Shown here piece by piece: positions 12,211-58,094 of a stretch of 64,000 nt of DNA. The stretch is from contig CAVVGP010000065.1 in assembly GCA_963747625.1 (NCBI GenBank), positions 3,311-67,310 of the forward strand. The letters run 5' to 3'. A model generated the notes under the pieces. That model worked only from the letters and a program-made list of their open reading frames with translations, made no database searches and was not told where the DNA came from. The stretch's first letter is position 1, and every line of letters begins with the position of its first letter. The position numbers were made by a program, and so were the translations under genes. Source of the DNA: an uncultured Bacteroidales bacterium. Its GTDB lineage: Bacteria > Bacteroidota > Bacteroidia > Bacteroidales > VadinHA17.

Positions 12211-12308
12211 TTAAAATAAAGAATTGAGACAATTCTTTATTCAGTATTTCAATTTTAGTTCATACTTTTAATGGGTCTTTTTTAAGTTGTCACTTAATAT
12301 ATTTAAGT

Positions 12309-13506: not shown

Positions 13507-13606
13507 TCCAATCAACCGCCTTGTGAGTGCTGATACTTGATTAAGAACTATTTTTTCTCGATGTAAGATGAATTAACCGCCCATAGAGTGAAAGGAAGGT
13601 ATAATA

Positions 13607-14158: not shown

Positions 14159-14160
14159 TA

Positions 14161-14739
14161 TTAATAATTATTTGGTAAGAGCTCAAAATATGCCTCAGGG
14201 TGCAGACAGGCAGGACAATTTTTAAGAGGCTTTGTACCAAAATGTATATAACCGCATTTTCTGCAGTACCAGAAAACCTTTTCATCACGCTGGAATACTT
14301 TATCCTGCATCACATTTTCAAGCAATTTTCTGTACCTTTCTTCATGACCCTTCTCAGCCTGGGCAATAGCCTTGAATGCTGTTGAGATGTTTTTAAATCC
14401 CTCTTTTTCTGCTGTCTCGGCAAAAGCAGGATAGAGTTTGCTCCATTCTTCATTTTCGCCTTCTGCTGCAGCAAACAGATTATCTTTTGTAGTTCCTGTT
14501 TTCCCTGCAGGATAAGAGGCAGTTATTTCTAACATCCCGCCTTCAAGAAACCCGAAGAATCTTTTGGCATGTTGTTGTTCCTGTAATGCTGTTGCCAGGA
14601 AAATTCCGGAAATCTGTTCATAACCTTCTTCTTTTGCAACCTTTGCTGCAAATTCATATCTGTTTTTTGCCTGAGATTCTCCGGCGAAAGCCTTCAGCAG
14701 ATTTTGTTCTGTTTTTGTTCCTTTTAAACTCTTTTCCAT
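14161..14739 (-). CDS. rbr: Rubrerythrin
   Basis: The sequence [28 protein letters not shown], then EQQHAKRF, then EKGHEERY is the diiron four-helix motif set. C-terminal CRKCGY...CPAC is the rubredoxin-like centre. I chose the start at the internal ATG (14737..14739), not the 19-codon upstream extension in the track. Confidence 0.9.
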
Positions 14740-14882
14740 ATTACATAACTTTATTAAATTTATAATTCGTAATCTCAAAAATGATAAAAGCTGCAAGTTA
14801 ATTATAGTAAAATTAACTATCTTTATTTTAAAATAAATTCTGTTTCAAAATTGGATAAAAATTAATTTAAATAAATACTAAA

Positions 14883-15443
14883 ATGATAATTGTACTATTT
14901 TTTCTGGCAATAATTTTGCTTTTTGTCCTGATGGCTGTTTCATTGTATAACAGGCTTGTCAGGCTGAGAAATAACCGTGAGCAGGCATTTGCTGACGTTG
15001 ATGTTCAGCTGAAACAAAGGCATGATCTTATACCTCAGCTGGTTGATTCGGTAAAAGGCTATATGGGACACGAAAGAGGTGTCCTCACAGATATTACTGA
15101 GGCACGTTCTAATGCTATGAAGGCTACTACTATAAATGATAAGATTGCAGCTGAAAACAAGTTATCTGCTGCACTTGAAGGATTGAAAGTGTCGGTGGAA
15201 GCATATCCCGATCTTAAAGCAAGCCAGAATTTCATGGAACTCCAGAATGAGATCGCCGATATAGAGAACAAGATAGCTGCTGCACGCAGGTTCTTTAACT
15301 CGGCTACGAAAGAGCTTAATGTTGCCACTGAATTGTTCCCCTCCAACCTGATAGCCACCCTCTTTAATTTCAAACGCGAACCGATGTTTGAACTAGGTGA
15401 TCAGCGGGCTGAAGCAGAACAACCTCCTAAAATCCAGTTCTGA
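14883..15443 (+). CDS. lemA: LemA-family membrane protein
   Basis: Intact 186-aa ORF with an N-terminal TM. YNRLVRLRN...DVQLKQRHDLIPQLV...AENKLS is typical of LemA. Confidence 0.85.
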   Translation: MIIVLFFLAIILLFVLMAVSLYNRLVRLRNNREQAFADVDVQLKQRHDLIPQLVDSVKGYMGHERGVLTDITEARSNAMKATTINDKIAAENKLSAALEGLKVSVEAYPDLKASQNFMELQNEIADIENKIAAARRFFNSATKELNVATELFPSNLIATLFNFKREPMFELGDQRAEAEQPPKIQF

Positions 15444-34375: not shown

Positions 34376-36251
34376 ATGATTAGTTACCTTCAGGCAGACA
34401 GTATTGCCAGACGAATAGGAGATAATCTTCTTTTCGACAATATTAATTTAAATATAAACAAGGATGATAAGGTTGCTCTTATTGCTGTAAATGGAGCAGG
34501 TAAGTCTTCACTGCTTGATATTCTGGCCGGGAAGGAAAATCCTGATAACGGTTCTCTGAGTATAAAACGTGATTTACGGATTGCTTATCTTCAGCAATCC
34601 CCGGTTTTGAATGAATCAAACAAAATTATTGATGAGCTTTTCTTTACCGACAGTGAGCTGGTAAGTGTTATTAAGGAATATGAAAAATGTGTTCTGAGCG
34701 GCCCTCCTGAACAGCTCCAGCCTATGATTCAGAAGATGGATGATTATAAAGCCTGGGATTATGAAGTGGCTGTCAGGCAGGTTTTGTACAGGCTTAAGCT
34801 TAACGATATGAATGCCGTTATCGGAACCCTGTCGGGCGGACAAAAGAAAAGGGTGGCACTTGCAAAAATCCTTGTGGAAGATGCAGACCTTCTTATCCTT
34901 GATGAACCAACAAACCATCTCGACCTCGATATGATCGAGTGGCTCGAGGAGTATCTTATAAAATCTAATAAGACACTTCTTATGGTTACTCACGACAGAT
35001 ACTTCCTCGACAAGAGTCTGTAACGTGATATTGGAACTTTCCGATAACGAACTTTACAGGTACGAAGGCAATTATGAATATTTTCTTGAGAAGAAACAGA
35101 GCAGGGAATATTCAGCTAAAATGAATTCAGAAAAGGCTAAAAACCTTTTAAAAACAGAGCTGGAATGGATGAGGCGGATGCCAAAAGCCAGGAGGCATAA
35201 GGCCAAATCGAGGATTGAGTCATTTTATGATCTGAAGGAAAAAGCTGCTAACCGGCCAGATGAAAAAAGCATCAATATTAATGTGAATATCTCAAGAATG
35301 GGTAGTAAAATCCTTGAGTTAAAAAATGTGAGTAAATCTTTTGGCGACAAGCTTCTTATTAATGACTTTACTTATCTTTTCAGCAGGTTTGAAAAAGCCG
35401 GACTTATAGGAAGGAACGGCACAGGGAAAACAACCTTGCTGAATATGATAACAGGACTCACTGAACCTGATTCCGGTACGGTTGACCGAGGTGAGACAAT
35501 CATCTTTGGATATTACCGCCAGGAGGGAATTGAATTCGACAATGATATGACCGTTATTGATGCAGTAAAGAACATAGCAGAAAAGGTTGTGGTTAATGAT
35601 GGCAACTCCTTGTCAATTCTACAGTTCATGAATTATTTCCTGTTTCCTCCGGAAAAACAGTTTACTCTGATCAGAAAATTGTCGGGTGGTGAAAAAAGAC
35701 GCCTTTACCTTTTAACAGTACTGATGAAAAATCCGAATTTTCTGATCCTTGACGAACCGACGAATGATCTTGATATTCTTACCCTTAATGTTCTGGAGGA
35801 ATACCTCGCAGGTTTCAGAGGCTGTGTAATTGTAGTCTCCCACGACAGATATTTTATGGACAAGGTTGTCGATCATATTTTTGAATATAAGGGAGCAGGT
35901 ATTATAAAGGATTTTCCAGGTAATTATTCTCAGCTCAGGGAGAAACAGAAAGAGACGGAAAAGCAGGTACCAGATGATAAACCTCCAAAAAAAACAGAAC
36001 CTGTCGGGGTATCAGAAATTCCGGTAAAGAAGGAAAAAAAGAAAGGGCTGACTTTTAACGAGAAAAGGGAATTTGATCTCCTGTCGATTGAAATTGAGAA
36101 TCTTGAAAAGGAAAAGAGACTTATTGAGACTGACCTGAGTCTTGGAGTTATAAATAATGAAGAATTGCTGTCAAAATCCAAAAGGCATGGTGAATTGATG
36201 AAGATACTGGATGAAAAGGAGTTAAGATGGCTTGATTTGAGTGAAAAATGA
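34376..36251 (+). pseudogene. ABC-F family ATPase (two ABC domains, C-terminal coiled coil), single frameshift
   Basis: Walker A motifs are AVNGAGKSS and GRNGTGKTT. Signature motifs are LSGGQKKRVALA and LSGGEKRRLYL. ORFs 34376..35023 and 35025..36251 join if one base is removed at about 35015 (HDRYFLDK / VCNVILELSDNELYRY). Confidence 0.85.
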
Positions 36252-36331: not shown

Positions 36332-37369
36332 TTGGAAAAAATTTTAATTAATACGCCTGGTTTCAGCTCTGAAATTATTGTTGGTGAAAAATGGGAAACA
36401 GTTTCCAGGCTTCTTCCTGACAATGGAACGGTAATTATTACTGATGATAATGTAAGGCAGTTATATGGAGACTGGTTTCCTAAGGTCCCTGTCTATTCCC
36501 TTACTCCAGGCGAAGGGAGCAAGAAACTGGAAGTTATTGAATATCTTGCCGGACGACTTCTTGAGGACGGTATTGATCGCTCAGGATTTGTTCTTGCAAT
36601 AGGAGGAGGCGTAGTATCTGATATTGCTGGTTTCCTGGCATCGGTGTATATGAGGGGTATAAGATGCGGATATGTTTCTTCCACATTGTTATCGCAAGTT
36701 GATGCCAGCACAGGGGGTAAAAATGGCGTCAACCTCGGGAGCTCAAAGAACATGATTGGCACAATCAGACAACCTGAATTCGTAATCTGTGATCCTGTAT
36801 TGCTGAAGACACTTCCGGAAAAGGAGTATTTGTCAGGTATGGCTGAACTTATCAAAACGGCCATTATAGGTGACAAAGAATTATTTGAAATAATTGAAAG
36901 AAATTTTGATGACATAATATCAAGAAGATGCTGAACTGCTGACTGAACTTGTAACGAAATCTGTGAGGTTTAAAGGAATGGTAGTATCGAACGATGAAAA
37001 GGAGAAGGATTAAGAAGGATACTTAATTTCGGACATACTTTTGGTCATGCGGTTGAGCTTCAGAGATCCGTAAAACATGGATTAGCAGTGGCCTCAGGTA
37101 TGGAACTGGCTACGGAATTTTCGCTGGAGAAAGGGTATATATCCATTGAGGAAAGAGACCGGATAGTCGATCTGTTGAAAAGAATAATGCTTATCGACAG
37201 GATTGATTTAACTGATGATGAGATGAAAAAGATGATCATCCGTGATAAAAAGAAAACTGGTACGGATATCAATTTTATTTTTACACATGGTGTAGGAAAA
37301 GCTGTTATCGAAAAAGTACCTGTTGATGATGTGCTGGGTTTTTATAAAAGGTTCAGGGATAAAAAATAA
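36332..37369 (+). pseudogene. aroB: 3-dehydroquinate synthase, at least 2 frameshifts
   Basis: ORF 36332..36934 (IGGGVVSDIAGFLASVYMRGI) is followed by unlisted frames QEDAELLTELVTKSVRFKGMVVSNDEKEK and GLRRILNFGHTFGHAVE, then ORF 37088..37369. Shifts are near 36920 and 37008. Confidence 0.8.
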
Positions 37370-44352: not shown

Positions 44353-44448
44353 TTTTTGGTATGGTATTTGTTTGATTAATTAAAAATAGATCGCGTAAAA
44401 ATAAATAAAAAGATCAGTTATTACTCAAAAAAGGAAGTGAGGTTAATC

Positions 44449-45534
44449 ATGAAAACAAAATACTATATCGGAATACTTTCAATACTTCTGCTTTCAGGCT
44501 CATCAGCAAACGCCTATAAAAATGATTTTGGAGATTACAGGAATGTTGATTCCAGGCAAGTTGTAAATAATTATAATGATGATAATGATTTTGATTTTGC
44601 ATCAAGGATTAACAGGTTTCACAGGTCATTTGCCACTTTCGATTATTATTCTCCTGTTTATACTGATCCTTACTTTTACGGTTATCATCCATTATCAATA
44701 GGATTGGGCATTTATGGCGGAACAGGTTTAGGATTGCATCTTGGTTTTGGCCTGGGTTTCGGACTGGGATTTTCCTACAATTACCCGTATTATGATTATG
44801 GATATGGTTATTACAATTATTATGGATACGATCCTTACTTATGGTGGGGTTATAATCCCTTTTACTATAACAGCTGGTTCTTTCCTGGGATGTTTAGCTT
44901 TAACTTCGGCTTCAATTGGTTCAATGGATACTATGGATGGAACAGGTTTAACCATTTTTACGGATGCAATAGTTTCGGACCCGGTTATCGTGGGTACAAT
45001 GATAATCATGGCTACTATTCTAACAGGTACTCAAGTCCGGTATCGACTTCGCGCAGAAATCCCGGAACCGGTTCCAATATATCCACCCCGAACAGCAATA
45101 TTTCTAGAAGGGGTATCTCTTCAGGGAATTCAACTGGAAACAGGCGTATGGAAGTCAGTTCAAATTCTAACACCGGTTCCGGAGTATCAAGGAGAATAAG
45201 CTCCTCATCTGTCAGCGGTGGCCAGGGCACTTATAGAAGCACCTCCGGCAATTACAGGACCAGTGCAAATAATAGTAGTTACGTTCGTAGTTCCATGGAC
45301 GTAAACAGAGGTATAAGTAGCCGTTCTTACAGCAGTACAAGCAGAGGTGCTATTTATGCAAGGGGATCAAGTACTGGTCTGACCTCACGTTCAGCAAGGG
45401 CTTTAAGTTCTTCTCAGTCACATTCATCTTCTTACAGATCTGTCAGATCGGGTTCCGGTACAAGGTTAAATTCATCACTCTTCAGAGGTTCCAGATCAGG
45501 TTCGTCAAGGGGAAGATCATCAGGCCGTAGATAA
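44449..45534 (+). CDS. Secreted low-complexity protein A: signal peptide, D/N-rich segment, Gly/Tyr/Phe/Trp aromatic core, long basic Ser/Arg tail ending SSGRR
   Basis: The signal is MKTKYYIGILSILLLSGSSANA. The core is GLGFGLGFSYNYPYYDYGYGYYNYYGYDPYLWWGYNPFYYNSWFF. By hand count the ~170-aa tail has about 27 Arg versus 2 acidic residues. It is paralogous in layout to 45673..47013. Confidence 0.7.
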   Translation: MKTKYYIGILSILLLSGSSANAYKNDFGDYRNVDSRQVVNNYNDDNDFDFASRINRFHRSFATFDYYSPVYTDPYFYGYHPLSIGLGIYGGTGLGLHLGFGLGFGLGFSYNYPYYDYGYGYYNYYGYDPYLWWGYNPFYYNSWFFPGMFSFNFGFNWFNGYYGWNRFNHFYGCNSFGPGYRGYNDNHGYYSNRYSSPVSTSRRNPGTGSNISTPNSNISRRGISSGNSTGNRRMEVSSNSNTGSGVSRRISSSSVSGGQGTYRSTSGNYRTSANNSSYVRSSMDVNRGISSRSYSSTSRGAIYARGSSTGLTSRSARALSSSQSHSSSYRSVRSGSGTRLNSSLFRGSRSGSSRGRSSGRR

Positions 45535-45672: not shown

Positions 45673-47013
45673 ATGAAAACATTATCTCAAATATTAGTTC
45701 TTGCACTTCTGACGCTCGGCTCCTGTACCTCAAGCCTTTATACTGGAGGAGAGTACGATGATCTTTATTATTCACCCTCGGACAAGCAGGTTGTTAAAAA
45801 CAAACCGCCTGTAAATGAACAATTTGTACAGGGCAATGTAAAGAACCAGGACTACTATGATAACATTTATGCAGCAGATACACTGGTTTCAGATGATTAC
45901 TCTGATGCAGTTGATATTGATAATCAGACCGGTAATAATGATTATTTCAATAACCAGGGGTATGAATATTATAATGAGTACCCCTATTCATCAATGTTAA
46001 GAATGTTTTACGGAAACTATTTTGATCCTTATTCTTACGGTTTCGGATACCCATCATTGGGGTTTGGTTTTGGCTTTGGATATGGCTTTGGAGGTTATCC
46101 TTATTATTATGGCTATGGAGGCTATCCTTATTATGGCTTCGGAGGATATCCCTATTATGGTTACGGAGGCTTTTATGGCGACTATTATGGATATGGAGGT
46201 TTAGGATATTACGGAGGCTTATATTATGGTTTAGGATATCCATCATACCGCTATGGCAGTGCTTATTATGGAAGACCGGAACGTCCGAGCAACCTTTCCT
46301 CGAGTTGGAATAGTTCAGTTGGTGGCGTTGGCTCATCATCATCAAGAAGGGATAATTCTGTTTCCGGAGGAACATCCGTCTCTGGAGCTATCAGTTCAGG
46401 ATCCCAGGCATTGTCTTCAGGGCAGAGGAGATCTGTTTCATCCGTAACACGTGCACAACAGACAGTTAATCAGGCAACGCAAAAAACTGTGCAGGTTCAG
46501 TCAAAAAGCGCATACAACCGTTCAAATAATGCAGTTCAGAAAAGTGCTGCAAATACAAAACCAGCTTATAACAGTGTTAACAGAGCCTATACTCCAAGTT
46601 ACAATAATCCAAGAATGAGCACAAGGCCTTCATACAATAATAGCAGAGCCTATGAAAATGTAAATTCAGGCAATACACCTACTACAAGAAGAATATATAA
46701 TAACTCAGGCACTGTAAGAACTCCATCTAATGGTTCTTATTCTATCCAGAGAAGAAGTCCTTCAGTATATTACTCGCCTTCCGGTCAGTACCGGTCGAGC
46801 TCTTACAGAAGTTCGCAAAGTTATTCAGTTCCATCAAGAAGCAGTGTGGAAAGAGGCAGCTATTCATCAGGGTCCTATGGAAGCTCATACTCGGGTAGCA
46901 GCAGATCCTCCTCCTCTTCCTCATATAGCGGATCCTCAGGTTCTCAATCAAGAGGTTCTTACTCCGGTTCTTCCGGTGGTGGTGGTGGCGGCTCTTCTTC
47001 AGGAAGAAGATAG
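45673..47013 (+). CDS. Lipoprotein low-complexity protein B: lipobox, acidic D/N/Y segment, GGYPYYGY repeat core, long Ser/Asn/Arg tail ending SSGRR
   Basis: MKTLSQILVLALLTLGSC is a lipobox with Cys18. The core is GFGFGFGYGFGGYPYYYGYGGYPYYGFGGYPYYGYGGFYGDYYGYGGLGYYGGLYYGLGYP. The tail is rich in SY/SR/NN motifs and ends in GGGGGGSSSGRR. Confidence 0.7.
   Translation: MKTLSQILVLALLTLGSCTSSLYTGGEYDDLYYSPSDKQVVKNKPPVNEQFVQGNVKNQDYYDNIYAADTLVSDDYSDAVDIDNQTGNNDYFNNQGYEYYNEYPYSSMLRMFYGNYFDPYSYGFGYPSLGFGFGFGYGFGGYPYYYGYGGYPYYGFGGYPYYGYGGFYGDYYGYGGLGYYGGLYYGLGYPSYRYGSAYYGRPERPSNLSSSWNSSVGGVGSSSSRRDNSVSGGTSVSGAISSGSQALSSGQRRSVSSVTRAQQTVNQATQKTVQVQSKSAYNRSNNAVQKSAANTKPAYNSVNRAYTPSYNNPRMSTRPSYNNSRAYENVNSGNTPTTRRIYNNSGTVRTPSNGSYSIQRRSPSVYYSPSGQYRSSSYRSSQSYSVPSRSSVERGSYSSGSYGSSYSGSSRSSSSSSYSGSSGSQSRGSYSGSSGGGGGGSSSGRR
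46090..46250 (+). repeat. Coding imperfect tandem repeat (18-30 nt units, each starting GGAGG, encoding GGYPYY(Y)GY-type units)
   Basis: There are six GGAGG-initiated units: ggaggttatccttattattatggctat / ggaggctatccttattatggcttc / ggaggatatccctattatggttac / ggaggcttttatggcgactattatggatat / ggaggtttaggatattac / ggaggcttatattatggttta. Units differ mostly at synonymous positions. Confidence 0.8.
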
Positions 47014-47093: not shown

Positions 47094-48593
47094 ATGAAAA
47101 GAGTAATATTATTAATTGTCGCAGTATTTTCCATATTCACCTGGGTTACAGCTCAAAATGTTGATGATGCATTAAGATATTCCCAGGTTTTATATGGCGG
47201 AACAGCAAGGTTTATGTCTATGGGAGGAGCTTTTACAGCCCTGGGCGGAGATATTTCTTCGTTAAATGAAAATCCAGGAGGCCTTGGTGTATTCAGATCA
47301 TCTGAAATAACTATAACACCGCAACTTTATAATGTTAAGACCACTGCAGGTTTTAACGGAGAATCATCAACTGATAATCTTGATAACTTTAACCTGGGAC
47401 AGATCGGTATAGTAGGTAATATATTATCAAACAACAATGAATCTGGACTTATTACCCTGAATTTAGGTTATTCCTTCAATAAAACGAATAACATGAGTCA
47501 GAGTGTTAAAATACAAGGTGTAAGTAATACAAGTTCAATGGCAGACTATTGGGCAGCGCTTGGAAATAATAACGGAGGAACATATTACAAGAATCTTCAG
47601 GGAGCTGAAGGAATTGCCTTCGATGCCTGGGTAATGGATACAGTCACAGGTTCAGGTGGTAAATCATTCGCAACAGTATTCTCAAATTATGGTGATAATC
47701 CTCCGTCAGTATATGGGCAGACAATCACTCGACTTATTTCAAATGATGGATATATTGGAGAGCATGCATTTTCAATCGGGGGCAATTATTCAAATAAGAT
47801 ATTCTTCGGAGCCACCTTTGGAATCTCTCAGCTAAGATATACAAGCCATTATGAACACCAGGAATACGCAAATAATGCACTGCCATCACAATTTCAGGAT
47901 TTTATCTACACTGATCATTATGAAGACAGAGGAACAGGATATTCAATCAAACTCGGAGCAATATATAAACCGGTAGATGCTGTAAGAATTGGACTTGCAT
48001 TCCATTCTCCGACATGGTACAGGATTGGAGAGTATTATTATAACGATATAACATCCCACTTCACTGACGGAGGCCAGTATGAGTCTTCTAACCCTCCATC
48101 AAGGTTCAATTACGCACTTGCCACACCTTTCAGGTTACTGGCAGGAGTAGGGGTCCAGATAAGAAAATTTGCACTTTTAAGTGCTGATTATGAATATGTT
48201 GATTATAGCTCAGCTAAATTTTCTGAAACAGGTGACGGCTATGATTACAGTGAAAAAAATATGGAAATCAAAAATACTCTTAAAGCAACAAGTAACATTC
48301 GTTTGGGCGGAGAGTTCCGTTTGAACAACATCTATCTCAGGACAGGATATGGTTTTTATGGCAAACCATTTAAATCAGGTGAAGACAATGCAAATCTTGA
48401 TTACAATACTTTGTCATTTGGCGCAGGTATCAGGGAGCAAAATGTTTCTATTGACTTCGCTTACACCAATTATAAATATTCTCAGAAATATTACCTGTAC
48501 CCTGTGAATGCAGGTGTTCCTGCAGCAGTTTCAAATCTGAGCACAGTAAGAAATATGTTTACTCTCACTTTAGCTTACAAGTTTGGTATTTAA
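47094..48593 (+). CDS. Outer-membrane beta-barrel protein of the FadL/TraF/PorQ-like type, uncharacterized
   Basis: Signal peptide MKRVILLIVAVFSIFTWVTAQ. The N-terminal motif YGGTARFMSMGGAFTALGGDISSLNENPGGLGVF resembles the conserved plug/hatch motif of FadL-, TraF- and PorQ-like barrels. Amphipathic strands alternate throughout, and the C-terminus is aromatic (...LAYKFGI). Confidence 0.65.
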   Translation: MKRVILLIVAVFSIFTWVTAQNVDDALRYSQVLYGGTARFMSMGGAFTALGGDISSLNENPGGLGVFRSSEITITPQLYNVKTTAGFNGESSTDNLDNFNLGQIGIVGNILSNNNESGLITLNLGYSFNKTNNMSQSVKIQGVSNTSSMADYWAALGNNNGGTYYKNLQGAEGIAFDAWVMDTVTGSGGKSFATVFSNYGDNPPSVYGQTITRLISNDGYIGEHAFSIGGNYSNKIFFGATFGISQLRYTSHYEHQEYANNALPSQFQDFIYTDHYEDRGTGYSIKLGAIYKPVDAVRIGLAFHSPTWYRIGEYYYNDITSHFTDGGQYESSNPPSRFNYALATPFRLLAGVGVQIRKFALLSADYEYVDYSSAKFSETGDGYDYSEKNMEIKNTLKATSNIRLGGEFRLNNIYLRTGYGFYGKPFKSGEDNANLDYNTLSFGAGIREQNVSIDFAYTNYKYSQKYYLYPVNAGVPAAVSNLSTVRNMFTLTLAYKFGI

Positions 48594-48661
48594 TACTTTG
48601 ATTACTTCCTGTATAAAGAGCTGCCACCGAATCTGGAAGGCCTCTTTTTTTATTTAATTAA

Positions 48662-49289
48662 TTAAAACAGGGGTTGTTTTGTTTTAGATATAGCCGGCAC
48701 TTCCGGCCCCGTATTAAATATCAGGTCAATAATACTAAGGCCGGGAACAAACTTGTTTTCGTTATTAAAAACCTGCATGTGCTCTTTTTCCTGAACTTCG
48801 ATTTTTTTTTCGGTGAAATTCTGTACCTGAAATCATTTTCTGACTTCAAGAACAGGTTCAAAATTTGTTGTACAGGTTAGTTTTATTTCCATTTTAAGCA
48901 TTTTAAGGATTGACTTCCGAAAGTTCCATATTCAGGTCGACAAGAAAATCAATCCTTTTTGAAATTACTCTTTCAATATTTTCAAAATAAAATTGAAAAT
49001 AGGGTGATGAGTTATAAGCGGCGGTCAATGCCCTTAAATGAACCTGCTGCCACCTCTTGGAGTAATCTATCCTGATGTCTTTTGTTGGTGTTTTGTGCTG
49101 GCTGCCAAGATATACCGGCACTGTAAGAAGCTGTGGCCCATGTGCCGACAGAATATAGCATCTGTTCCGGTAGGATTGTTTAATGTAGTTCTCCTCATTT
49201 TCTACAAATACTTCATTAGCATGAGAAATCAGAGAGAAATATTCGACTGGCGGCAAGTATGATGTAGAAATTAATATTTTAGCTGCCAT
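48662..49289 (-). pseudogene. WbqC-like family protein, about 2 frameshifts
   Basis: ORF 48903..49289 (YLPPVEYFSLI...YIKQSYRNRCYIL...LLTVPV) continues in other frames to ...NKFVPGLSIIDLIFNTGPEVPAISKTKQPLF, with stop at 48662-64. A T9 run at 48804-12 lies in the region. Confidence 0.6.
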
Positions 49290-49299
49290 GGCAGAATGA

Positions 49300-50049
49300 T
49301 CATTCCATCTTATTAATCATGCTGGCAGCGAAACCGGCACCAAATCCATTATCGATGTTCACAACCGTAACTCCTGTTGAGCAGCTTGTGAGCATAGCCA
49401 GGAGAGCGGATATTCCTCCAAAATTGGCGCCATAGCCGACACTTGTAGGTACCGCGATTACAGGTTTATCAACTAATCCTCCGACCACACTTGCAAGAGC
49501 CCCTTCCATACCTGCAATGACAATTATTACCCGGCATTTCCTGATTTCAGGTAATTTATCTACAAGCCGGTGAATGCCGGCTACACCTGCATCATAAATT
49601 CTTAAGATATTATTGCCCAGAAGTTCAGCTGTGATTGCAGCCTCCTCTGCAACCGGTATATCAGATGTTCCTGCAGTAATGACAGCAATTCTGCTTTCAG
49701 GGACCTTCGGTTTTTCTCTTTGAAATGAAATAATCCTTGCAACCGGATAATAAACAGCGTCGTGCGATACACTATGAACAGCCTCAAACATTTCATTATT
49801 AGCCCTTGTACCTATGACATTATTTTCCTTTTCTGCCATCACTCTGAATATTTCCCTTACCTGCTCGACTGATTTCCCGGCGCAATAAATAATTTCAGGA
49901 TACCCGGTCCTTATCTCACGGTGATTGTCAATTCTGGCAAAACCAAGATCGGTATAAGGAAAGTTTTTAAGAACTTCTAGAGCCTTTTCGATGCTTGTTT
50001 CACCATTTTTTACATCGTTAAGCAGTTTTTCGACCTCTTTTATATTCAT
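49300..50049 (-). CDS. larB: Nickel-pincer cofactor biosynthesis protein LarB (NaAD carboxylase/hydrolase, AIR-carboxylase-like)
   Basis: Intact 249-aa ORF. GFARIDNHREIRTGYPEIIYCAGK ... VITAGTSDIPVAEEA ... VIAGMEGALASVVGG is typical LarB/PurE-like sequence. Confidence 0.85.
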   Translation of the reverse strand: MNIKEVEKLLNDVKNGETSIEKALEVLKNFPYTDLGFARIDNHREIRTGYPEIIYCAGKSVEQVREIFRVMAEKENNVIGTRANNEMFEAVHSVSHDAVYYPVARIISFQREKPKVPESRIAVITAGTSDIPVAEEAAITAELLGNNILRIYDAGVAGIHRLVDKLPEIRKCRVIIVIAGMEGALASVVGGLVDKPVIAVPTSVGYGANFGGISALLAMLTSCSTGVTVVNIDNGFGAGFAASMINKME

Positions 50050-50855
50050 ATTGCCCGTTTTTCAGGATTTAAACTTCCTGTCCTGTAACCTTCAAGGTCC
50101 AAAGATACATATCTGAATCCTATTTTTTTTAAGCTGGAAATAATATGTTCCTTGTCAGGATTACGAATGATCTTCTCTAAATAGCCCGAAAGGCATTCAA
50201 TTCTGGCTATATCCCCGTGTATTCGTACCCTTGTTCCGGGATAGCCTAATTCAAATAGCTTATTTTCAGCTTCTTCTATCATTCTGATTGTACCATCACT
50301 AATATTGACTTCGTAAGGAATTCTGGTTAACAGGCATGCCATGGAAGGTTTATCCCATATTCCCAGTTTTGTTTTTCTTGATAACTCACGAATATCACTT
50401 TTTGTCAGACCTGATTCGAGCAGAGGACTCCTGATTCCCAGTTCTTTCAATGCCGCCATACCTGGTCTGAAATCCCCGGTATCATCAGCATTTGTTCCAT
50501 CAATCACGTACTGGAAATTATTTTTTGATGCAAAATCCAGTAAATCAGTGAATATTATTTTTTTGCACTGATAGCATCTGTCAATCGGATTGCTTCTTAT
50601 CAGTTCGGGAAAAGCAATATCTATTATTTTGTGTCGGATACCAAATGAATTGGTGAACTCAATAGCTTCATTAATTTCCCGGGCAGGCATATAAGGTGTT
50701 CGTATGGTTATTGCTATTATGCCCGTTTTGTTTAATTTATATGCATGGTGTAAAAGAAATGTACTGTCGACTCCCCCTGAAAAAGCAACTACAATCGATT
50801 TCAGATTTTTTAGTATACTGTCGAGTTTCAGAATTTTTTGGTTTCTGATGTCCAT
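50046..50855 (-). CDS. larE: LarE sulfur-insertion ATPase (PP-loop)
   Basis: Intact 269-aa ORF with PP-loop VAFSGGVDS and cysteines in RCYQCK and PSMACLLTR. It overlaps the larB start by 4 nt. Confidence 0.85.
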   Translation of the reverse strand: MDIRNQKILKLDSILKNLKSIVVAFSGGVDSTFLLHHAYKLNKTGIIAITIRTPYMPAREINEAIEFTNSFGIRHKIIDIAFPELIRSNPIDRCYQCKKIIFTDLLDFASKNNFQYVIDGTNADDTGDFRPGMAALKELGIRSPLLESGLTKSDIRELSRKTKLGIWDKPSMACLLTRIPYEVNISDGTIRMIEEAENKLFELGYPGTRVRIHGDIARIECLSGYLEKIIRNPDKEHIISSLKKIGFRYVSLDLEGYRTGSLNPEKRAI

Positions 50856-50896
50856 TTTAATTAAAATATTTTCAATTATAAATTATGCATTATCAA

Positions 50897-52075
50897 TCAT
50901 TTCTTACCTGCCTGTAAAAGGGCAATAATATTATTGTAAACCTCTTTGACGGGAATCATCTTTTCAGCAGCAATACGTTTGCATTCTTCATATTCCGGTT
51001 TAAAGGATACCTCTTTCCCGTTATAGTATGATCGTTTTACCGTCACATCGCCATAAACAGTTGCAAAAGTTTCGAATTTTCTTACCAGTGTATCTTTTCT
51101 GAATGGGAATGTTCTGATTCCCAGTGAGGTTGATTCTGTAAAAATGATATCTTTTAATGTACCGGCTGATTCTGTTTCACATATAACATTTAGCACGATA
51201 CCCGGACGACCTTTTTTCATAATAATATTTGAAAAGAAAACGTCCGATGCGCCGGCTTTAAACAATCTGTCGGAGATATATTCAAAAAATTCCGGATTCA
51301 TATCATCTATGTTGCATTCAATCTGAAGTGCTTCATGTCCTGACACCGGATTCACAATCGTTTCGCCGATAAACACTCTTAAAAGGTTAGGAACATCCTT
51401 GTGCTCTTTATGGCCCACGCCATATCCTGTTTTTTCAATAGCTAAAGCAAGATCAGGGCTGAAGCTAGTAGCCAGTGAAGCAATAATAGCTGCACCTGTA
51501 GGTGTTGTAGCTTCAAAGTCTACACCCCCTGTTTTAACGGGAATGCCCTTGATTATTTCGGCAGTTGCCGGAGCAGGAACTGGAAGTGTGCCATGATCAC
51601 ATTTTACAAGACCTCCTCCCAGTTCAACTGTGGAAACATGAACAGCATCAACATTTAACGCATTGAAGCAAATAGCTGCTCCGACAACGTCAATTATAGA
51701 ATCAACAGCGCCAACTTCGTGAAAATGTATATGGTCTACTGAAGTTCCATGTACAGTAGCTTCAGCCTGTGCGATCTTCATGAAAATTTTTCTGCTTAAT
51801 TCTTTCGTTTTATTATCAAGTGTCGAGTCATTAATAATTTTTTCGATATCAGACATATACCTGTGTGCATGTTCATGCCTGGTCTGTTTAACTGTCACTT
51901 TTGTTCCTGTAATTCCATGCCGCTGATCTTTTTGTATTTGCAGTTCCCATCCTGGAAGTTTAAGTTTATTCAGCTCATCAATGAGAAACGTTTTATCAAT
52001 CCCAAGATCAATCATAGCACCGAGATTCATATCTCCACTGATACCTGAGAAACAATCGTAACCTATAATTTTCAT
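50897..52075 (-). CDS. larC: LarC nickel insertase (DUF111 family), encoded as a single uninterrupted ORF
   Basis: Intact 392-aa ORF. CFSGISGDMNLGAMIDLG..., HFHEVGAVDSIIDVVG, TPTGAAI and IMKKGRPG are typical LarC/DUF111 motifs. Confidence 0.85.
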   Translation of the reverse strand: MKIIGYDCFSGISGDMNLGAMIDLGIDKTFLIDELNKLKLPGWELQIQKDQRHGITGTKVTVKQTRHEHAHRYMSDIEKIINDSTLDNKTKELSRKIFMKIAQAEATVHGTSVDHIHFHEVGAVDSIIDVVGAAICFNALNVDAVHVSTVELGGGLVKCDHGTLPVPAPATAEIIKGIPVKTGGVDFEATTPTGAAIIASLATSFSPDLALAIEKTGYGVGHKEHKDVPNLLRVFIGETIVNPVSGHEALQIECNIDDMNPEFFEYISDRLFKAGASDVFFSNIIMKKGRPGIVLNVICETESAGTLKDIIFTESTSLGIRTFPFRKDTLVRKFETFATVYGDVTVKRSYYNGKEVSFKPEYEECKRIAAEKMIPVKEVYNNIIALLQAGKK

Positions 52076-52262
52076 ATTTATAAAGTAGTGTTAAGTGCAA
52101 CAAACAAAACCGAAGAATGTTATAATTTATGTTCAGAATGAATATGATTGTATTTTATTCTGCGAATATACTATTTACAACCTTTACGGAATAATAAAAA
52201 AAAAATTGTATTTTTCGGAACTTATCGGGAAATCGTTTTAATTAAACAGATTATTTAAGATT

Positions 52263-53183
52263 ATGAAAAGAAGGGATTTTCTTAAAACATCAGTGGGCAG
52301 TGGCATCGCTGCCGGTGCAGCATTAAGCATGGGAGTATATGATAAATTATTGCCAACAGCAAAAACAGCTGAGAAATATGATATGGTGGCTATAATGGGA
52401 GGTAGCCCTGATGCTATGTTTGACCTTGGAATTCAGGAATTCGGAGGCATGGGTACATTTGTTAAAAAAGGACAGAAAGTCCTTGTCAAGCCTAATATTG
52501 GGTGGGATGTAATTCCTGATCTTGGTGCAAATACCAATCCTTTGCTTGTAAAAAGGATCATCGAGCATTGTTTTAAGGCAGGAGCAAAAGAGGTATTTGT
52601 GTTTGATCATACATGTGATAACTGGGTTAATTGTTATAGTAATTCCGGAATTGAAAAAGCAGCTAAATCAGCAGGAGCTAAAGTAGTACCTGGCAATTCT
52701 GAAAGTTATTACCACGAGATTGAAATACCGGGTGGAATAAAACTACAGAAAGCCAAAGTTCATCAGCTTTTGCTTGAGACAGATGTTTATATAAATGTAC
52801 CCGTTCTTAAGGATCATAATTCAACAAGGATGACTTGCTGCCTTAAAAACAATATGGGAATAGTCTGGGACAGAGGTTTCTGGCATTCGAATGACCTGAA
52901 TCAATGCATTGCCGATTATGCCCTTTATGAGAAAAAGCCGGTACTGAATGTCATCGATTGTTATAATGTTATGGTTAAGCATGGTCCCCAGGGAGTATCA
53001 AAAGAGGATATTGTTTCAATGAAGTCACAGATACTTACACCCGACTGGGTTGCAGGTGATGCGGCTGCAGCAAAAATTCTGGGAGTAGCTGTTGAAAAGA
53101 TCGAGTACATACCAATTGCTCATAAAATGGGGTTGGGGAATATGAACCTGGAATCTCTTAATATTAAAAGAATTAAAATGTAA
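52263..53183 (+). CDS. Tat-exported DUF362-family protein (uncharacterized)
   Basis: The twin-arginine signal is MKRRDFLKTSVGSGIAAGAALSMG. DUF362-like blocks are GQKVLVKPNIGW...NTNPLLVKRIIEHCFKAGAKEVFVFD and LKDHNSTRMTCCLKNNMG...VIDCYNVMVKHGPQG. Confidence 0.7.
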   Translation: MKRRDFLKTSVGSGIAAGAALSMGVYDKLLPTAKTAEKYDMVAIMGGSPDAMFDLGIQEFGGMGTFVKKGQKVLVKPNIGWDVIPDLGANTNPLLVKRIIEHCFKAGAKEVFVFDHTCDNWVNCYSNSGIEKAAKSAGAKVVPGNSESYYHEIEIPGGIKLQKAKVHQLLLETDVYINVPVLKDHNSTRMTCCLKNNMGIVWDRGFWHSNDLNQCIADYALYEKKPVLNVIDCYNVMVKHGPQGVSKEDIVSMKSQILTPDWVAGDAAAAKILGVAVEKIEYIPIAHKMGLGNMNLESLNIKRIKM

Positions 53184-53189
53184 TTTCTG

Positions 53190-54748
53190 ATGAGTTCATC
53201 TTTACTTAGAAGAATCCGCATTGTTTTTTCGACTCTTGTTTTTATTTATTTTGTACTGGTTTTTGTTGATTTCAAATCAATAATACCTGAAAAATACATT
53301 AACGATTTAATTTTTTTACAGTTTATACCTTCTGTCCTGAAGTTTTATAATCTGAAAACATTGGCAGCAGGAGGTTTTCTTATAATTCTTTTATTGACAT
53401 TGCTTACCGGTCGTACTTATTGCTCATTTCTTTGCCCTCTTGGTATCGGTCAGGATCTTAACAGCAGGATAGGAGGACGGATTAAGAAAAAGTTCAGGAG
53501 GTACGGATATAAAAGGCCGTTTACCGTTTTAAGGTACACTATTCTGGCAGCTACTCTTATTGTTACATTGGTGTGGGGTATTTACATGATAACCATTCTG
53601 GACCCATATAGTATTTTTGCCAGGTTTATGACCTATTTTGCAAAGCCGGTTATAATAATGATGAATAATTTTCTTGCAGGAATACTTGGGAAATTTGATA
53701 TCTATACACTTAGTAATGTTCCAGTTAAGGGATTTTCACTTATTGCCTATTCTATTCCGGCAGCTTTCTTTATTCTTATAGGGGCACAGTCCTTAACCAA
53801 GGGGAGATTATATTGCAATATGATCTGCCCAGTTGGTACATTTCTTGGTCTGATCTCGAAAATTTCGATCTTCCGGATAAAATTTAATGAGTCTGCCTGT
53901 ACACGTTGCGGAAGATGCGCAATAAGGTGCAAATCATCATGTATTGACTTTCTTAAGCCACATGTCGATCTTTCACGATGCGTAAGCTGCTTCAACTGCA
54001 TACATACCTGTCAGGATAAAGCCATTTCTTTCGGGATTGTGAGCTTTAAAAAGAAAGTTCATGAGACAGATGAAAGTAAACGTAAAGCTTATAGTGGGAT
54101 CACTTCTTCTCTTATTCGGCTTTTCACGTGTTTCAGATGGTCAGGATAAGACTGCACCAAAACCTAAGAAAGGATCAACGGTAAAGGAGAACCGGACATG
54201 TCCGGTATGTCCTCCCGGTGGGATAGGAATTGAAGATTTTAACAAAAACTGTACTGCCTGTTCACTATGTATAAATGCCTGCCCGAATGGCGTTCTGGAA
54301 CCTGCATACACACAATATGGGATTGCTGGCATGATGCAGCCGGTTATGGATTACCATAAGAGCTTCTGTACATATAATTGCACCAGATGTACTGAGATTT
54401 GTCCGACCAACGCATTGCATCCTCTGCTTCTGGAAGCTAAGAAGCTTACACAGATCGGGAAAGCAAATTCATAAAAGATAATTGTATTGTAAAACCGAAA
54501 AAACAGCATGCGGCGCCTGTTCAGAAGCCTGTCCGACAAAAGCATGCCATATGATTCCATACGAAGGGAACCTGGTAATCCCTGAGGTTACAGAAGATAT
54601 CTGTATCGGATGCGGACACTGTGAATTTGCCTGTCCAGCTTCCCCTTATAAAGCAATTTTTGTGGATGGAAATACTGTACATACTGCCGCAAAAAAACCG
54701 GAAAATGTGAAATCAGAAACAAAAACGCCGGTAGAATTTCCATTTTAA
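53190..54748 (+). pseudogene. Membrane-bound polyferredoxin (NapH/MauN/YccM-type 4Fe-4S binding protein), at least 2 frameshifts
   Basis: The N-terminus is multi-TM with GRTYCSFLCPLG and GRLYCNMICPVG motifs. Fe-S motifs are CTRCGRCAIRC, CVSCFNCIHTC, CTACSLCINACP, CTRCTEICP, CGACSEACP and CIGCGHCEFACP. Pieces 53190..54149, 54061..54474 and 54482..54748 are colinear. Confidence 0.75.
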
Positions 54749-54794
54749 ATTAATATTTTGATAACCACCCCTAAAAATAATTTATTCTGATACA

Positions 54795-55214
54795 ATGAAA
54801 CCATCACATATTGAACATATTGGTATAGCTGTCTCAAATCTTGAGGATGCGATAAATTTTTATGAAAATGTACTGGGTCTGGAATGTTATAATATTGAAG
54901 ATATAGCCGATCAGAAAGTCCGGACAGCATTCTTTCTGATCGGACAAACAAAAATTGAACTTCTGGAATCAACTGATCCTGATGGTCCCATTGGAAAATT
55001 CATTCAGAAGAAAGGAGAAGGAATTCATCATATTGCCTTTTCAGTTGAAAAAATTGAAGAACAATTAGTGCATGCTTCAAATATGGGCATCACACTTATT
55101 GATTGTAAACCGCGAAAAGGAGCAGAAGGTCTCGATATTGCCTTTTTACATCCAAAAGCCACTTCAGGGGTTCTTATTGAACTGTGCGAAAAAAAGAAAG
55201 AGACAATAAAATGA
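54795..55214 (+). CDS. mce: Methylmalonyl-CoA epimerase (glyoxalase/VOC fold)
   Basis: Intact 139-aa ORF. IEHIGIAVSNLEDAINFYENVLG ... GEGIHHIAFSVEKIEE ... IAFLHPKATSGVLIELCE is typical of MCE. Confidence 0.8.
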   Translation: MKPSHIEHIGIAVSNLEDAINFYENVLGLECYNIEDIADQKVRTAFFLIGQTKIELLESTDPDGPIGKFIQKKGEGIHHIAFSVEKIEEQLVHASNMGITLIDCKPRKGAEGLDIAFLHPKATSGVLIELCEKKKETIK

Positions 55215-55287
55215 TCTGAATCACTTAACTGGCTAATGGTGTACATGTTTGAAAAAATTATTAGGTTTGTATAACATTAGAAGCCAT

Positions 55288-56517
55288 ATGAAAAAATCCA
55301 TAGCAATTGCAGGTAATACTGGTCCAAAGATCAGGTCTGATTGTGAAATTATTTTAGAAATAAAGCCTGAAGGCGGATTAGCAATTAACATTAATTCTAA
55401 AGTCAGGGCATTATATGGTGAATCCATAAAGAATCTTATTGCTGAAATACTTGTTTTTTTTGAAATTAAACATGCTGCAGTAAAAATTACCGACTCAGGA
55501 GCTCTTCCATTTGTGATTGCTGCCAGGATGGAATCGGCTGTCAAACAATTGATTAATACGGATATGGAATATCTCCCTGAGTTTCTTGCAGAGAATAGTT
55601 ATTCCACAACACGTGACAGGTTCCGGTTCTCAAGGCTATACCTGCCAGGTAATACTCCGGGACTTATGATCAATGCGGGTCTTCATTCTGCCGATGGAAT
55701 AATTCTTGATCTTGAAGACTCTGTTGCACCGGAAAAGAAAGATGAAGCCAGGATTCTGGTAAGGAATGCTTTAAGGCAGGTCAATTTCAATGGGGCAGAA
55801 AGAATGGTAAGAATAAACCAGGGTGAAAGAGGTTTGAAAGATCTTCATTTTGTTATTCCTCATTATGTAAATCTTGTACTTCTGTCAAAATGCGAAAATG
55901 CAGATTATGTCCGGGCAGTGGAAAAAGAGATTGCAGGTATTAAACATAAATTCAACCTCAGCAATGAAGTGTTTCTGATGCCTATTATTGAGAGCGCCCT
56001 TGGCATTGAGAATTCTTTTGAAATAGTAAGTGGTTCTGAAAATATAGTTGCTGTCGCTATTGGTCTTGAGGATTATACAGCTGATCTTGGTGTTTCAAGA
56101 ACCGTTGAGGGGAAAGAATCATTTTATGCCAGAACGCGACTTGTGGTTGCTGCCAGGGCAGCCGGTATCCAGCCTATAGATTCCGTATTTTCTGATACTT
56201 CTGATATGGAATCTTTAAAGGAGACTGTGATGGTATCAAAATCGCTGGGTTTTGAAGGAATGGGTTGTATACATCCCAGACAGATACCTGTTATAAAAAA
56301 GGGATTTGCTCCTGATGAAAATGAAATAGAGAAGTCTAAAAAAATCGTACTCGCATTTGAAACAGCAAAGCTTAATGGGCTTGGTGTTGTTGCACTCGGT
56401 TCAAAAATGGTTGATCCTCCCGTTGTGGCCCGTGCACAAAAGAACATTGACCTTGCTGTCAGGCTGGGCCTCTTACCACATGACTGGAATAATGAATTTC
56501 AGTCGGATGAGAAATAA
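55288..56517 (+). CDS. citE: Citrate lyase acyl-carrier (gamma, CitD) fused to citryl-CoA lyase (beta, CitE)
   Basis: The N-terminal ~90 aa, SIAIAGNTGPKIRSDCEIILEIKPEGGLAININSKVRALYGESIKNLIAEIL...DSGALPFVIAARMESAV, aligns by eye with enterobacterial CitD (AGTLESGD...INSSV...DKGALD...RARLE). The remainder is HpcH/CitE-like (RSRLYLPGN..., LDLEDSVAP, EDYTADLG). I chose the start at the internal ATG 55288. Confidence 0.8.
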   Translation: MKKSIAIAGNTGPKIRSDCEIILEIKPEGGLAININSKVRALYGESIKNLIAEILVFFEIKHAAVKITDSGALPFVIAARMESAVKQLINTDMEYLPEFLAENSYSTTRDRFRFSRLYLPGNTPGLMINAGLHSADGIILDLEDSVAPEKKDEARILVRNALRQVNFNGAERMVRINQGERGLKDLHFVIPHYVNLVLLSKCENADYVRAVEKEIAGIKHKFNLSNEVFLMPIIESALGIENSFEIVSGSENIVAVAIGLEDYTADLGVSRTVEGKESFYARTRLVVAARAAGIQPIDSVFSDTSDMESLKETVMVSKSLGFEGMGCIHPRQIPVIKKGFAPDENEIEKSKKIVLAFETAKLNGLGVVALGSKMVDPPVVARAQKNIDLAVRLGLLPHDWNNEFQSDEK

Positions 56518-56534
56518 GTATAAAAAGAGTCAAT

Positions 56535-58094
56535 ATGCCAATGAAAACTGTAATAAATGCTGCTGGCAGGTCAGTTCCACTTGAGGTCAACGGACAATCA
56601 CAGATCCCTTTTAAAGGAGTTGGTAAATATAGGCCCGACGGCAGAAAGTATTCCCCTCCAATACCGTCATGTTCAGATTACCCCGACGATGGCAATAAAG
56701 TTGCAGGTTCTCTTGAGGAAGCTCTGCGGAAATGCGGCCTTCGGGATGGAATGACCATTTCGACACATCATCATCTGAGAGATGGCGATCTGATAAGCAA
56801 TAAGGTATTTGAACTGGCTTCAGCGATGGGAGTTAAGGATCTGGTATGGTTTCCCTCTGCTTCATTCCCATGTAATGATCCTATCATAGAATATCTTGAA
56901 AATGGAACTATAAACAGGATTGAAGGAAGTATGAATGGTCCTTTGGGACGATATGTTTCGGAAGGCAGGATGAAAGGAACTGCTGTACTTAGATCTCATG
57001 GCGGGAGGGTACAGGCTATTCAGGATGGCGAGGTCAGAATTGACATTGCAGTTCTGGCAGCTCCTACAGCTGATTCTTTTGGAAATGCAAAAGGCACTGG
57101 AGGATCATCAGCCTGTGGCGTTCTTGGATATGCAAAAGCTGATTACATGTACGCCTCAAAAGTAATTGTGGTCACTGATAACCTTGTGGATCTACCTTGC
57201 TTCCCGATGGAGATAGAAGGAAACTATGTTGATTGGGTGGTGGTGGTTGAAAAAATTGGAATACCTGAAAAGATTGTATCAGGTACAACACAGATTACAA
57301 AGAGCCCCGACAGATTGCTGATTGCAGAATTGACTGCATCATTTCTTGAAAAATCGGGTATTTTAAAAGATGGCGTTACGATGCAGGCTGGAGCCGGAGG
57401 AACTTCTCTGGCAATAGCAGTCTTTGTTCACGAGATACTGAAGAATAAAGGATGGAAATCGAAATTTGGATTTGGAGGAAGTACCAAATATATGGTAAAG
57501 ATGCTCGAAGAGGGTCAGATGGGCTTTATCCTCGATGCCCAGGTATTCGATCTTGATTCAGTGAAATCCATAGAGAATAATCCAAATCATGTTCCTTATT
57601 CAGTTTTCAATGCATACAATTATCATTCGAAGGGAAACCTTACCAGTATAATGGATATTATGATCCTTGGAGCAACTGAAGTTGATTTGAATTTCAATGG
57701 CAACGTAGTTACACATTCAGATGGATATCTGCTTCATGGCATAGGAGGATGGCAAAACTGCCTTCATGCCAGGAATGTAATTCTTCCAATACCTCTGTTT
57801 CGTGACCGTATACCGGTAATAGTGGATAAAGTCACAACATTGTGTGGCCCAGGTGAACTTATTGATGTAATAATAACAGAAAGAGGCATTGCTATTAATC
57901 CTCTGAGGCAGGATCTTATTGAAAGTGTAAAAGGAAGCGGACTTCCATTAAAAACACTCCGTGAGCTCAAGGATGAAGCTGAAAAAATTTGCGGAGTGCC
58001 GCAAAAAGCTCAGTTTGAGGATGAGATTGTTGCTGTTATAAAATGGGTTGATGGTACAGTTATTGATGTTGTAAGAAAAATCAAAGTGAAGTAA
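56535..58094 (+). CDS. citF: Citrate lyase alpha subunit (citrate CoA-transferase)
   Basis: Intact 519-aa ORF. Its size and sequence ([11 protein letters not shown]..., [20 protein letters not shown]) are typical of CitF. Confidence 0.85.

Follow-up and report, generated by a model that had tools for sequence, protein, structure and literature searches.

The 64,000-nucleotide stretch of an uncultured Bacteroidales bacterium analysed here (contig CAVVGP010000065.1; hereafter the window, with about 39% G+C) carries at positions 48662-54748 the genes larB, larE and larC, which serve to build the cofactor nickel-pincer nucleotide (NPN), and, divergent to them, a gene for a DUF362 protein followed by one for a polyferredoxin. 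It is well supported that the last two form a dedicated periplasm-facing electron-transfer module, whose proposed catalytic subunit is predicted to undergo export by twin-arginine translocation (Tat) and resembles the lactate racemase LarA. We slightly favour the further reading that the module is an oxidoreductase of the periplasm with a link to quinone, and that its LarA-like subunit receives NPN before export and is in this way the client of the adjacent lar genes. A periplasmic redox module using NPN or another complex cofactor had been proposed in an earlier note based on the letters of this DNA; the periplasm-facing redox architecture, with the Tat signal of the DUF362 protein and its NapH-NapG partner, was borne out, the use of NPN being still a hypothesis. 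The features concerned are as follows.

48701-49289, minus strand: WbqC-like gene (PF08889), frame-broken; Pfam WbqC 105.7 bits on a 128-aa open reading frame (ORF)
49300-50049, minus strand: larB, intact; NPN precursor carboxylase/hydrolase; NCBIfam NF033503, Pfam AIRC
50046-50855, minus strand: larE, intact; sulfur transferase of the [4Fe-4S] (CXXC-C) type; TIGR00268
50897-52075, minus strand: larC, intact; nickel insertase; LarC1 and LarC2 in a single ORF
52076-52262, no strand: divergent intergenic region between larC and the DUF362 gene, 187 nt
52263-53183, plus strand: DUF362 gene, 306 aa; PF04015; Tat signal; LarA-like fold; proposed catalytic subunit
52263-52340, plus strand: twin-arginine signal peptide (MKRRDFLKTSVGSGIAAGAALSMGVY) of the DUF362 protein; R3, R4 and F6 invariant
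52815-52886, plus strand: DUF362 codons for H185 (52815-17), K195 (52845-47) and H208 (52884-86)
53190-54748, plus strand: polyferredoxin, a polytopic NapH-NapG fusion; frames 3, 1, 3, 2 owing to three indels
54075-54140, plus strand: internal Tat-type motif of the polyferredoxin (SKRK-LIVGSLLLLFGF) and weakly hydrophobic fifth transmembrane segment
54087-54494, plus strand: frame-break interval of the polyferredoxin (three sites)

Export, fold and conserved residues of the DUF362 protein

The DUF362 protein matched PF04015 over profile positions 1-200 of 200, with 153.1 bits against a gathering cut-off of 24; a look-up of its exact sequence returned no recorded contig. Its N-terminus, MKRRDFLK, bears the twin-arginine signal pointed out in the earlier note; R3, R4 and F6 were found to be invariant in 80 of 80 orthologues, and the signal models remained slightly under their cut-offs (Pfam TAT_signal 17.8 against 22.7; TIGR01409 16.2 against 16.7). 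Export by Tat and a periplasmic location are predicted from the sequence with good support. Since C103 is the sole broadly conserved cysteine, the protein itself is probably devoid of an iron-sulfur (Fe-S) cluster, and the Tat signal together with a single conserved cysteine fits a non-Fe-S cofactor gained in the cytoplasm.

DUF362 and the N-terminal domain of LarA belong to one Pfam clan, CL0471, and DUF362 has served the LarA field solely as an outgroup (PMC11770544). The Pfam DUF362 model was found to match authentic LarA over residues 82-245 of the latter (E=1e-5, 26.1 bits against a cut-off of 24). The AlphaFold model obtained from an alignment of 52 diverse sequences had a predicted local distance difference test (pLDDT) value of 95.3; a run on 34 close homologues (80-100% identity) gave 56.6 and was discarded. 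When the model was compared with the PDB by Foldseek, the top 19 matches all belonged to the LarA family (E 5e-6 to 3e-4, probability 1.0, query-normalised TM-score 0.34-0.51) and included lactate racemase, malate racemase, a broad-spectrum racemase, single-histidine homologues and 4NAR, the runners-up being Rossmann-type dehydrogenases with E above 5e-3, more than 10-fold weaker.

The window protein gave no match to Lar_N (PF09861) or LarA_C (PF21113), only PF04015 and TAT_signal being returned even at E up to 10. The profile of the Tat-DUF362 subfamily found no relative among all PDB sequences, nor did a single cytoplasmic DUF362 query, and the hidden Markov model (HMM) of the subfamily gave nothing significant against LarA sequences. 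Because such narrow subfamily profiles miss LarA, the homology of DUF362 and LarA rests on the broader Pfam model and on the fold. A weak match of the DUF362 protein to the NCBIfam model of the cyanobacterial 'Npun_F2552 family' (E=4e-14) was also observed, far below its cut-off; to our knowledge, cyanobacteria are reported as having larBCE without LarA.

The residues D174, K183, H185, K195, N196, R204 and H208 are among the most conserved of DUF362. Each of H185, K195 and H208 is invariant in 80 of 80 orthologues and is present in 47-48 of 50 distant representatives (33-50% identity), and the three occur also in cytoplasmic DUF362 forms bearing ferredoxin domains. The alignment by hhalign, with a global probability below 1%, paired H185 with His174 of LarA, K195 with Lys184 and H208 with His200, the column confidence being high for the first two and lower for H208, so that the His-x9-Lys-x12-16-His pattern of DUF362 appears, from sequence, to align with the catalytic His174, the cofactor-tethering Lys184 and the nickel ligand His200. 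The register agreed with the coordinates of the Pfam DUF362 model on LarA, and the D-x10-H-x9-K spacing is the same and ungapped in both families. The cytoplasmic DUF362 of one distant locus (L144) reads HEMAGFGGAIK-x15-H at this place, versus HFFAGFSGGRK-x15-H in LarA. The comparison with LarA advocated in the earlier note was positive as to clan, Pfam match and fold, with a His/Lys/His triad that appears to align.

To summarise the likeness, the DUF362 protein shares its clan with LarA, finds its only strong PDB fold matches there and is encoded beside larB, larE and larC. The differences are that it is about 120 residues shorter and that LarA is cytoplasmic, whereas DUF362 carries a Tat signal and is predicted to be periplasmic. 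Moreover, DUF362 is always paired with a membrane polyferredoxin, and this constant pairing implies net electron transfer and not racemisation.

The polyferredoxin partner and its broken frame

The polyferredoxin, in which Pfam recognised Fer4_5 twice together with Fer4 domains, is composed of two parts. The N-terminal part corresponds to NapH/MauN (79 bits, NCBIfam) and contains two CX3CP motifs, two ferredoxin clusters and hydropathy peaks fitting four transmembrane segments. Residues 290-492 correspond to NapG (54 bits), the match beginning at model position 4 and spanning NapG's own Tat signal. The designation 'NapH-like' given previously is right for the first part but too narrow for the whole, the protein being NapH plus NapG. 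At the junction before the fifth segment the members of the window's clade have S-K-R-K-[LF]-[IV], followed by a weakly hydrophobic stretch and then by the four-cluster NapG-like domain; at the internal twin-arginine position, 100 homologues showed RR in 50 cases, KR in 41, RK in 4 and neither in 5.

A family of NapH-NapG fusions, named PFD, has been described, for which membrane insertion by Sec and Tat was shown experimentally and in which four clusters lie on the outer membrane face (Tooke et al. 2017, PMC5449189); DUF362 goes unmentioned there, and a partner protein of PFD is not named. Compared by description, the PFD of the delta-proteobacterium MLMS-1 (Q1NSB0) and the present protein have in common four NapH-type transmembrane segments, two CX3CP motifs and two clusters on the cytoplasmic side. 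In both, a motif resembling that of Tat signals is followed by a fifth segment of weak hydrophobicity and by a four-cluster domain of the NapG type. They differ in the motif, which is K-R in the window clade and R-R in PFD, and in the six CxxCxxC-type motifs found here versus the seven clusters predicted for MLMS-1. The canonical NapGH-type protein is a quinol dehydrogenase; the likeness to it extends over the NapH and NapG parts, whereas the partner here is DUF362 and not a nitrate reductase system. Fusions of DUF362 with the polyferredoxin were sought among long relatives (P0128, P0129, P0133 and others) and none was found, the extensions being unrelated.

The frame of the polyferredoxin gene is indeed broken, as had been noted, and the number of breaks, previously given as at least two, was corrected to three: an extra base at about 54087, a T lost from the run at 54468-69 and an A lost from the run at 54491-94, in consequence of which the gene is listed as three ORFs. 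Three single-base edits restored an uninterrupted protein of 519 aa, colinear with a 519-aa homologue that is intact in a related complete genome (68% identity over the first about 310 residues and 63-83% over the rest), with all Cys motifs kept. Housekeeping genes are fragmented in the same manner at 2256-5445, 12309-13506, 19675-21760, 34376-36251 and 36332-37369. The AcrB gene (2256-5445) is cut into six ORFs tiling the Pfam profile from 1 to 1020, that of pyruvate phosphate dikinase (PPDK) into at least three, and an aminotransferase is present as a fragment; by eye, the genes for aspartate aminotransferase, an ABC-F protein and dehydroquinate synthase also seem split in two.

This picture suggests that the window comes from an assembly of the error-prone, long-read-like kind, in which an indel occurs roughly once every few kb, and because housekeeping genes are broken throughout it, the breaks in the polyferredoxin are most likely assembly indels and not biology. 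That the polyferredoxin, and hence the module, exists in this organism only as a true pseudogene might be argued from the occurrence of three breaks within one gene and from the broken frame of the adjacent WbqC-like gene, which was absent from the earlier note and to which an intact 200-aa homologue matches in two different frames (tblastn). The pseudogene reading was rejected as highly improbable: the core genes mentioned above are broken similarly, short runs of T and A are the sites of two of the three breaks, each a loss of one base, the restored protein is of full length with its Cys motifs, and the polyferredoxin is intact in every relative.

The lar genes and their linkage to the module

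The genes larB, larE and larC had been described as intact on the minus strand, and all of them were found to lie above the NCBIfam equivalog cut-offs, LarB with 299 bits against 175 (NF033503), LarE with 295 against 150 (TIGR00268), LarC1 with 213 against 90 and LarC2 with 142 against 50; for LarC, Pfam Ni_insertion gave 482 bits. LarE contains the PP-loop SGGVDS at residue 26 as well as CYQC at 94-97 and C174, which make up the CXXC-C motif, the mark of the catalytic [4Fe-4S]-type LarE (PMC9283937). The absence of LarA from the 64 kb, also stated in the earlier note, was upheld by an unfiltered search of all 644 six-frame segments of the window, in which the best E-value of the LarA-family HMM was 0.27, and by an empty tblastn search with 5HUQ LarA (the query being 100% identical to chain 5huq_A).

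Relatives are labelled as Bacteroidales genome bins. Gene neighbourhoods were compared in 80 DUF362-anchored loci (one genome per species) and 80 LarC-anchored loci (metagenome contigs), designated L with a number. Neither LarA nor an aldo-keto reductase was found in the window or, up to a distance of 10 kb, in the members of its clade, which leaves no other client nearby, and none of the 160 loci yielded a LarA homologue. Of the genomes surveyed, about 15% make NPN in the absence of LarA (PMC11796402), and the reported users of NPN other than LarA are two only, aldo-keto reductases and ornithine cyclodeaminase (PMC13524815).

The view that the DUF362 and polyferredoxin genes constitute a conserved two-gene module, put forward in the earlier note, agreed with the finding that, wherever the downstream sequence was adequate (76 of 76 loci), the gene after DUF362 is that of the polyferredoxin, over Bacteroidota, Ignavibacteriota, Desulfobacterota and others. 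The lar genes lie divergently upstream of DUF362 in 25 of the 70 loci with adequate upstream flank, including 14 of 14 at a DUF362 identity of at least 75% and 8 of 10 at 60-75%. Viewed from the other side, 30 of 31 contigs with a LarC identity of at least 55% carry the DUF362-polyferredoxin pair. LarB and LarC are 48-89% identical across the clade. In a neighbour-joining tree the lar-linked loci formed one large Bacteroidales clade together with L047, L068/L063 and L081; a wider clade unites L081, L068 and L063 with L032, L045 and L059. The adjacency of DUF362 and lar persists despite different flanking genes in L068 and L081.

At a LarC identity of 45-55% other contexts appear, for example NikR-larE-larC-larB with a membrane protein, and also aldo-keto reductases with C-terminal ferredoxin domains. 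Four distant LarC-anchored loci hold DUF362 proteins with 21-36% identity to that of the window. The order in L153 is Tat-DUF362, polyferredoxin, Tat-aldo-keto reductase, polyferredoxin, aldo-keto reductase, larC, larB, and in L156 it is larC, larB, larE, Tat-aldo-keto reductase, an unknown ORF, Tat-DUF362, polyferredoxin, aldo-keto reductase. In L130, larC and larB lie about 6.5 kb from a DUF362 gene whose product bears a ferredoxin domain. The fourth, L144, contains at 9998-15175 an apparent operon larC-larE-larB-nicO-DUF362, in which nicO encodes a high-affinity nickel transporter (330 bits) and two 4Fe-4S motifs are nested within the DUF362 protein (174 bits). Upstream lie the genes for two aldo-keto reductases that bear ferredoxin domains.

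The aldo-keto reductases adjacent to lar in L153 (2921-9899) and L156 (13041-19219) have C-terminal ferredoxin domains, and two of them carry Tat signals (SRRQVLK and NRREFLK); one of these, in L153, is followed by its own NapH-NapG polyferredoxin, paralleling the DUF362-polyferredoxin pair of the same cluster. Since aldo-keto reductases are a published NPN-dependent family, with 427 co-occurrences with lar (PMC13524815), their presence beside lar serves as a positive control for the neighbourhood approach. NphT and the related NPN-dependent aldo-keto reductases, discovered by mining larC neighbourhoods without larA (PMC13524815), resemble the present case in that a non-LarA protein with a His/Lys signature is encoded beside larBCE, and enzymes of this type turn up in the LarC-anchored loci, at times beside DUF362-polyferredoxin pairs. 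They differ in their TIM-barrel fold, unrelated to LarA and DUF362, and in being soluble and shuttling hydride between molecules without an Fe-S partner.

Several observations weigh against the NPN-dependent module. As regards the protein itself, the overall probability of the residue alignment with LarA, which derives from sequence profiles, is low; the second catalytic histidine of LarA, His108, has no conserved counterpart in DUF362; and we know of no demonstrated precedent for a hydride cofactor coupled to one-electron Fe-S carriers. As regards the neighbourhoods, lar is linked in only 3 of 46 loci at a DUF362 identity of 50-60%, and 45 of the 70 species genomes with adequate upstream flank lack any lar gene up to 10 kb from the DUF362-polyferredoxin pair, as do most of the loci in other phyla. 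Within Bacteroidales, the lone exception among the LarC-anchored contigs, L088 (2198-3966), has kept larC-larE-larB-WbqC and has no module, and in L032, L045 and L059 (at about 9000-9800) WbqC stands directly beside DUF362-polyferredoxin with no lar, as if the larBEC block had been inserted or deleted between WbqC and DUF362. Furthermore, larE is absent between larB and larC in L002, L006, L007, L023 and L030 and is reduced to remnants in L008 (8408-8491) and L017 (6692-6763). Finally, WbqC, which flanks larB throughout the clade and is of unassigned role, as well as an outer-membrane protein and methylmalonyl-CoA epimerase, are syntenic too, so that part of the lar linkage could be inherited gene order. 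The association between DUF362 and lar suspected in the earlier note consequently holds within one Bacteroidales clade and recurs elsewhere, but does not extend to most other loci.

These observations could be accounted for by inherited gene order without functional coupling, in which case larBEC would serve an NPN enzyme encoded elsewhere, a LarA homologue or an NphT-like aldo-keto reductase, and the DUF362-polyferredoxin pair would be a periplasmic redox system with another cofactor or none. The loci without lar, the co-synteny of unrelated neighbours and the separate loss of lar and of the module (L032, L045 and L059 versus L088) all agree with it, and LarA homologues need not adjoin larBCE. 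In addition, a Pfam co-occurrence screen around larC highlighted aldo-keto reductases, DUF362 being unmentioned in the main text (PMC13524815). We nevertheless regard inherited order as rather unlikely. The neighbour comes from the sole Pfam clan that contains LarA and has kept the residues aligning with the cofactor ligands of the latter, lar genes are found again near members of four other DUF362 subfamilies, where the order of genes differs and where the apparent lar-nicO-DUF362 operon is one case, and no LarA was found in the 160 loci.

The missing or residual larE of seven loci would also be expected if the lar cluster were a decaying relic and the adjacency reflected a past function. This explanation is very unlikely, as larB, larE and larC are intact here despite the frequency of indels in the window, conservation of LarB and LarC extends over the whole clade, and larE may sit elsewhere in the genomes that lack it at this place.

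The divergent gap of 187 nt between larC and DUF362 was found to be exact as given in the earlier note, as was the start of the polyferredoxin 6 nt past the stop codon of DUF362. The alignment of 29 orthologous intergenic regions revealed the conserved blocks AATATACTATTTACAA and an A-tract followed by TTGTATTTTTCGG; the consensus (window 52160-52225, L002-L030) is AATATAC(T/A)ATTTACAATC and, after it, an A-tract then T(T/C)GTATTTTTCGG. These blocks may be shared promoter or operator elements. No match was obtained by an Rfam scan of positions 48000-55500, the intergenic region included.

Some further features of the surroundings were recorded. A membrane protein of 170-200 aa with 5-6 predicted transmembrane segments, termed f13, is encoded divergently upstream of DUF362 in 12 loci without lar from Ignavibacteria and Bacteroidota (L031, L035, L037, L041, L049, L055, L057, L058, L061, L065, L079 and L083). 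It is the sole recurrent neighbour outside the lar-linked clade and gave no match to Pfam or NCBIfam. In L088 methylmalonyl-CoA epimerase is directly beside larC. Downstream of the module, positions 54795-58094 of the window contain syntenic housekeeping genes apparently unrelated to it, which encode a methylmalonyl-CoA epimerase-like glyoxalase, a citrate-lyase beta/acyl carrier protein fusion and an ORF resembling, by eye, the citrate-lyase alpha subunit. On the other side, two adjacent ORFs (44437-45534 and 45673-47013) are located upstream of a gene for a FadL-like outer-membrane protein (47094-48593). Their products are low-complexity proteins rich in Gly, Tyr and Ser, in which an N-terminus of the signal or lipoprotein type is combined with runs such as GYGGYPYYGFGG and with a long tail of Ser and Arg.

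Proposed mechanism and significance

The data show the identities of the genes, the fold, the conserved motifs, the constant pairing of DUF362 with the polyferredoxin and a linkage to lar that is clade-wide and recurrent; beyond these we infer NPN binding, docking of the two proteins, a quinone link and a class of substrate, which can be combined as follows. The set larB-larE-larC would supply NPN and shares its divergent promoter region with the module that is its likeliest client. The DUF362 protein would receive its NPN while still in the cytoplasm and would be exported in the folded state by Tat, K195 acting as the tether, H208 as nickel ligand and H185 as acid/base. Outside the membrane it would dock on the NapG-like four-cluster domain of the polyferredoxin, whose NapH-like membrane part would join the menaquinone pool and the cytoplasmic Fe-S clusters. 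The net result would be that a substrate in the periplasm is oxidised or reduced by two electrons, with NPN accepting or donating the hydride, and it is tempting to guess that 2-hydroxy acid and 2-keto acid, or some other alcohol and its carbonyl, form the substrate pair.

The reaction would correspond to the first half-reaction of LarA, in which hydride is taken from the alcohol carbon with the help of one histidine, except that the reduced NPN would be re-oxidised through the Fe-S chain rather than giving the hydride back. With re-oxidation by this route the second histidine would be unnecessary. LarA catalyses a 'hidden' redox reaction, whereas that of the proposed DUF362 enzyme would be a net one. 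In general arrangement the system resembles those of the MsrPQ type, where a cofactor-loaded, Tat-exported periplasmic enzyme is wired to the respiratory chain by a dedicated membrane partner; this is an analogy only, the molybdopterin and haem b cofactors and the folds of MsrPQ being unrelated.

Of the elements brought together here, lar genes without larA (PMC11796402), the clan that unites DUF362 with LarA (PMC11770544) and the dual-targeted polyferredoxin (PMC5449189) are already known. In the open-access literature no paper was found that ties DUF362 to NPN, to this polyferredoxin or to the periplasm, none that deals with Npun_F2552, and none that joins the nickel-pincer cofactor with Tat or the periplasm. 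If the NPN-dependent module is correct, it would represent an enzyme of the LarA kind that is exported, coupled to Fe-S clusters and engaged in net redox chemistry.

A wider possibility, of which we are doubtful and which is offered tentatively, is that DUF362 as a whole forms a second large branch of nickel-pincer enzymes that pass the electrons of their cofactor to Fe-S carriers. Such a branch would include the cytoplasmic and archaeal DUF362 proteins with nested or C-terminal ferredoxin domains, as well as the Tat-exported ones, which would perform net redox reactions in the periplasm in connection with the quinone pool, and the occurrence of larBCE without larA, seen in roughly 15% of genomes, would in part be explained by it. 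The Tat-DUF362 subfamily alone comprises about 4,300 clusters at 50% identity. If NPN binding is true, a very large family without an assigned function would gain one, NPN chemistry would extend from hidden-redox isomerisation to electron transfer of the respiratory type, and NPN would, for the first time, have a place in the periplasm.

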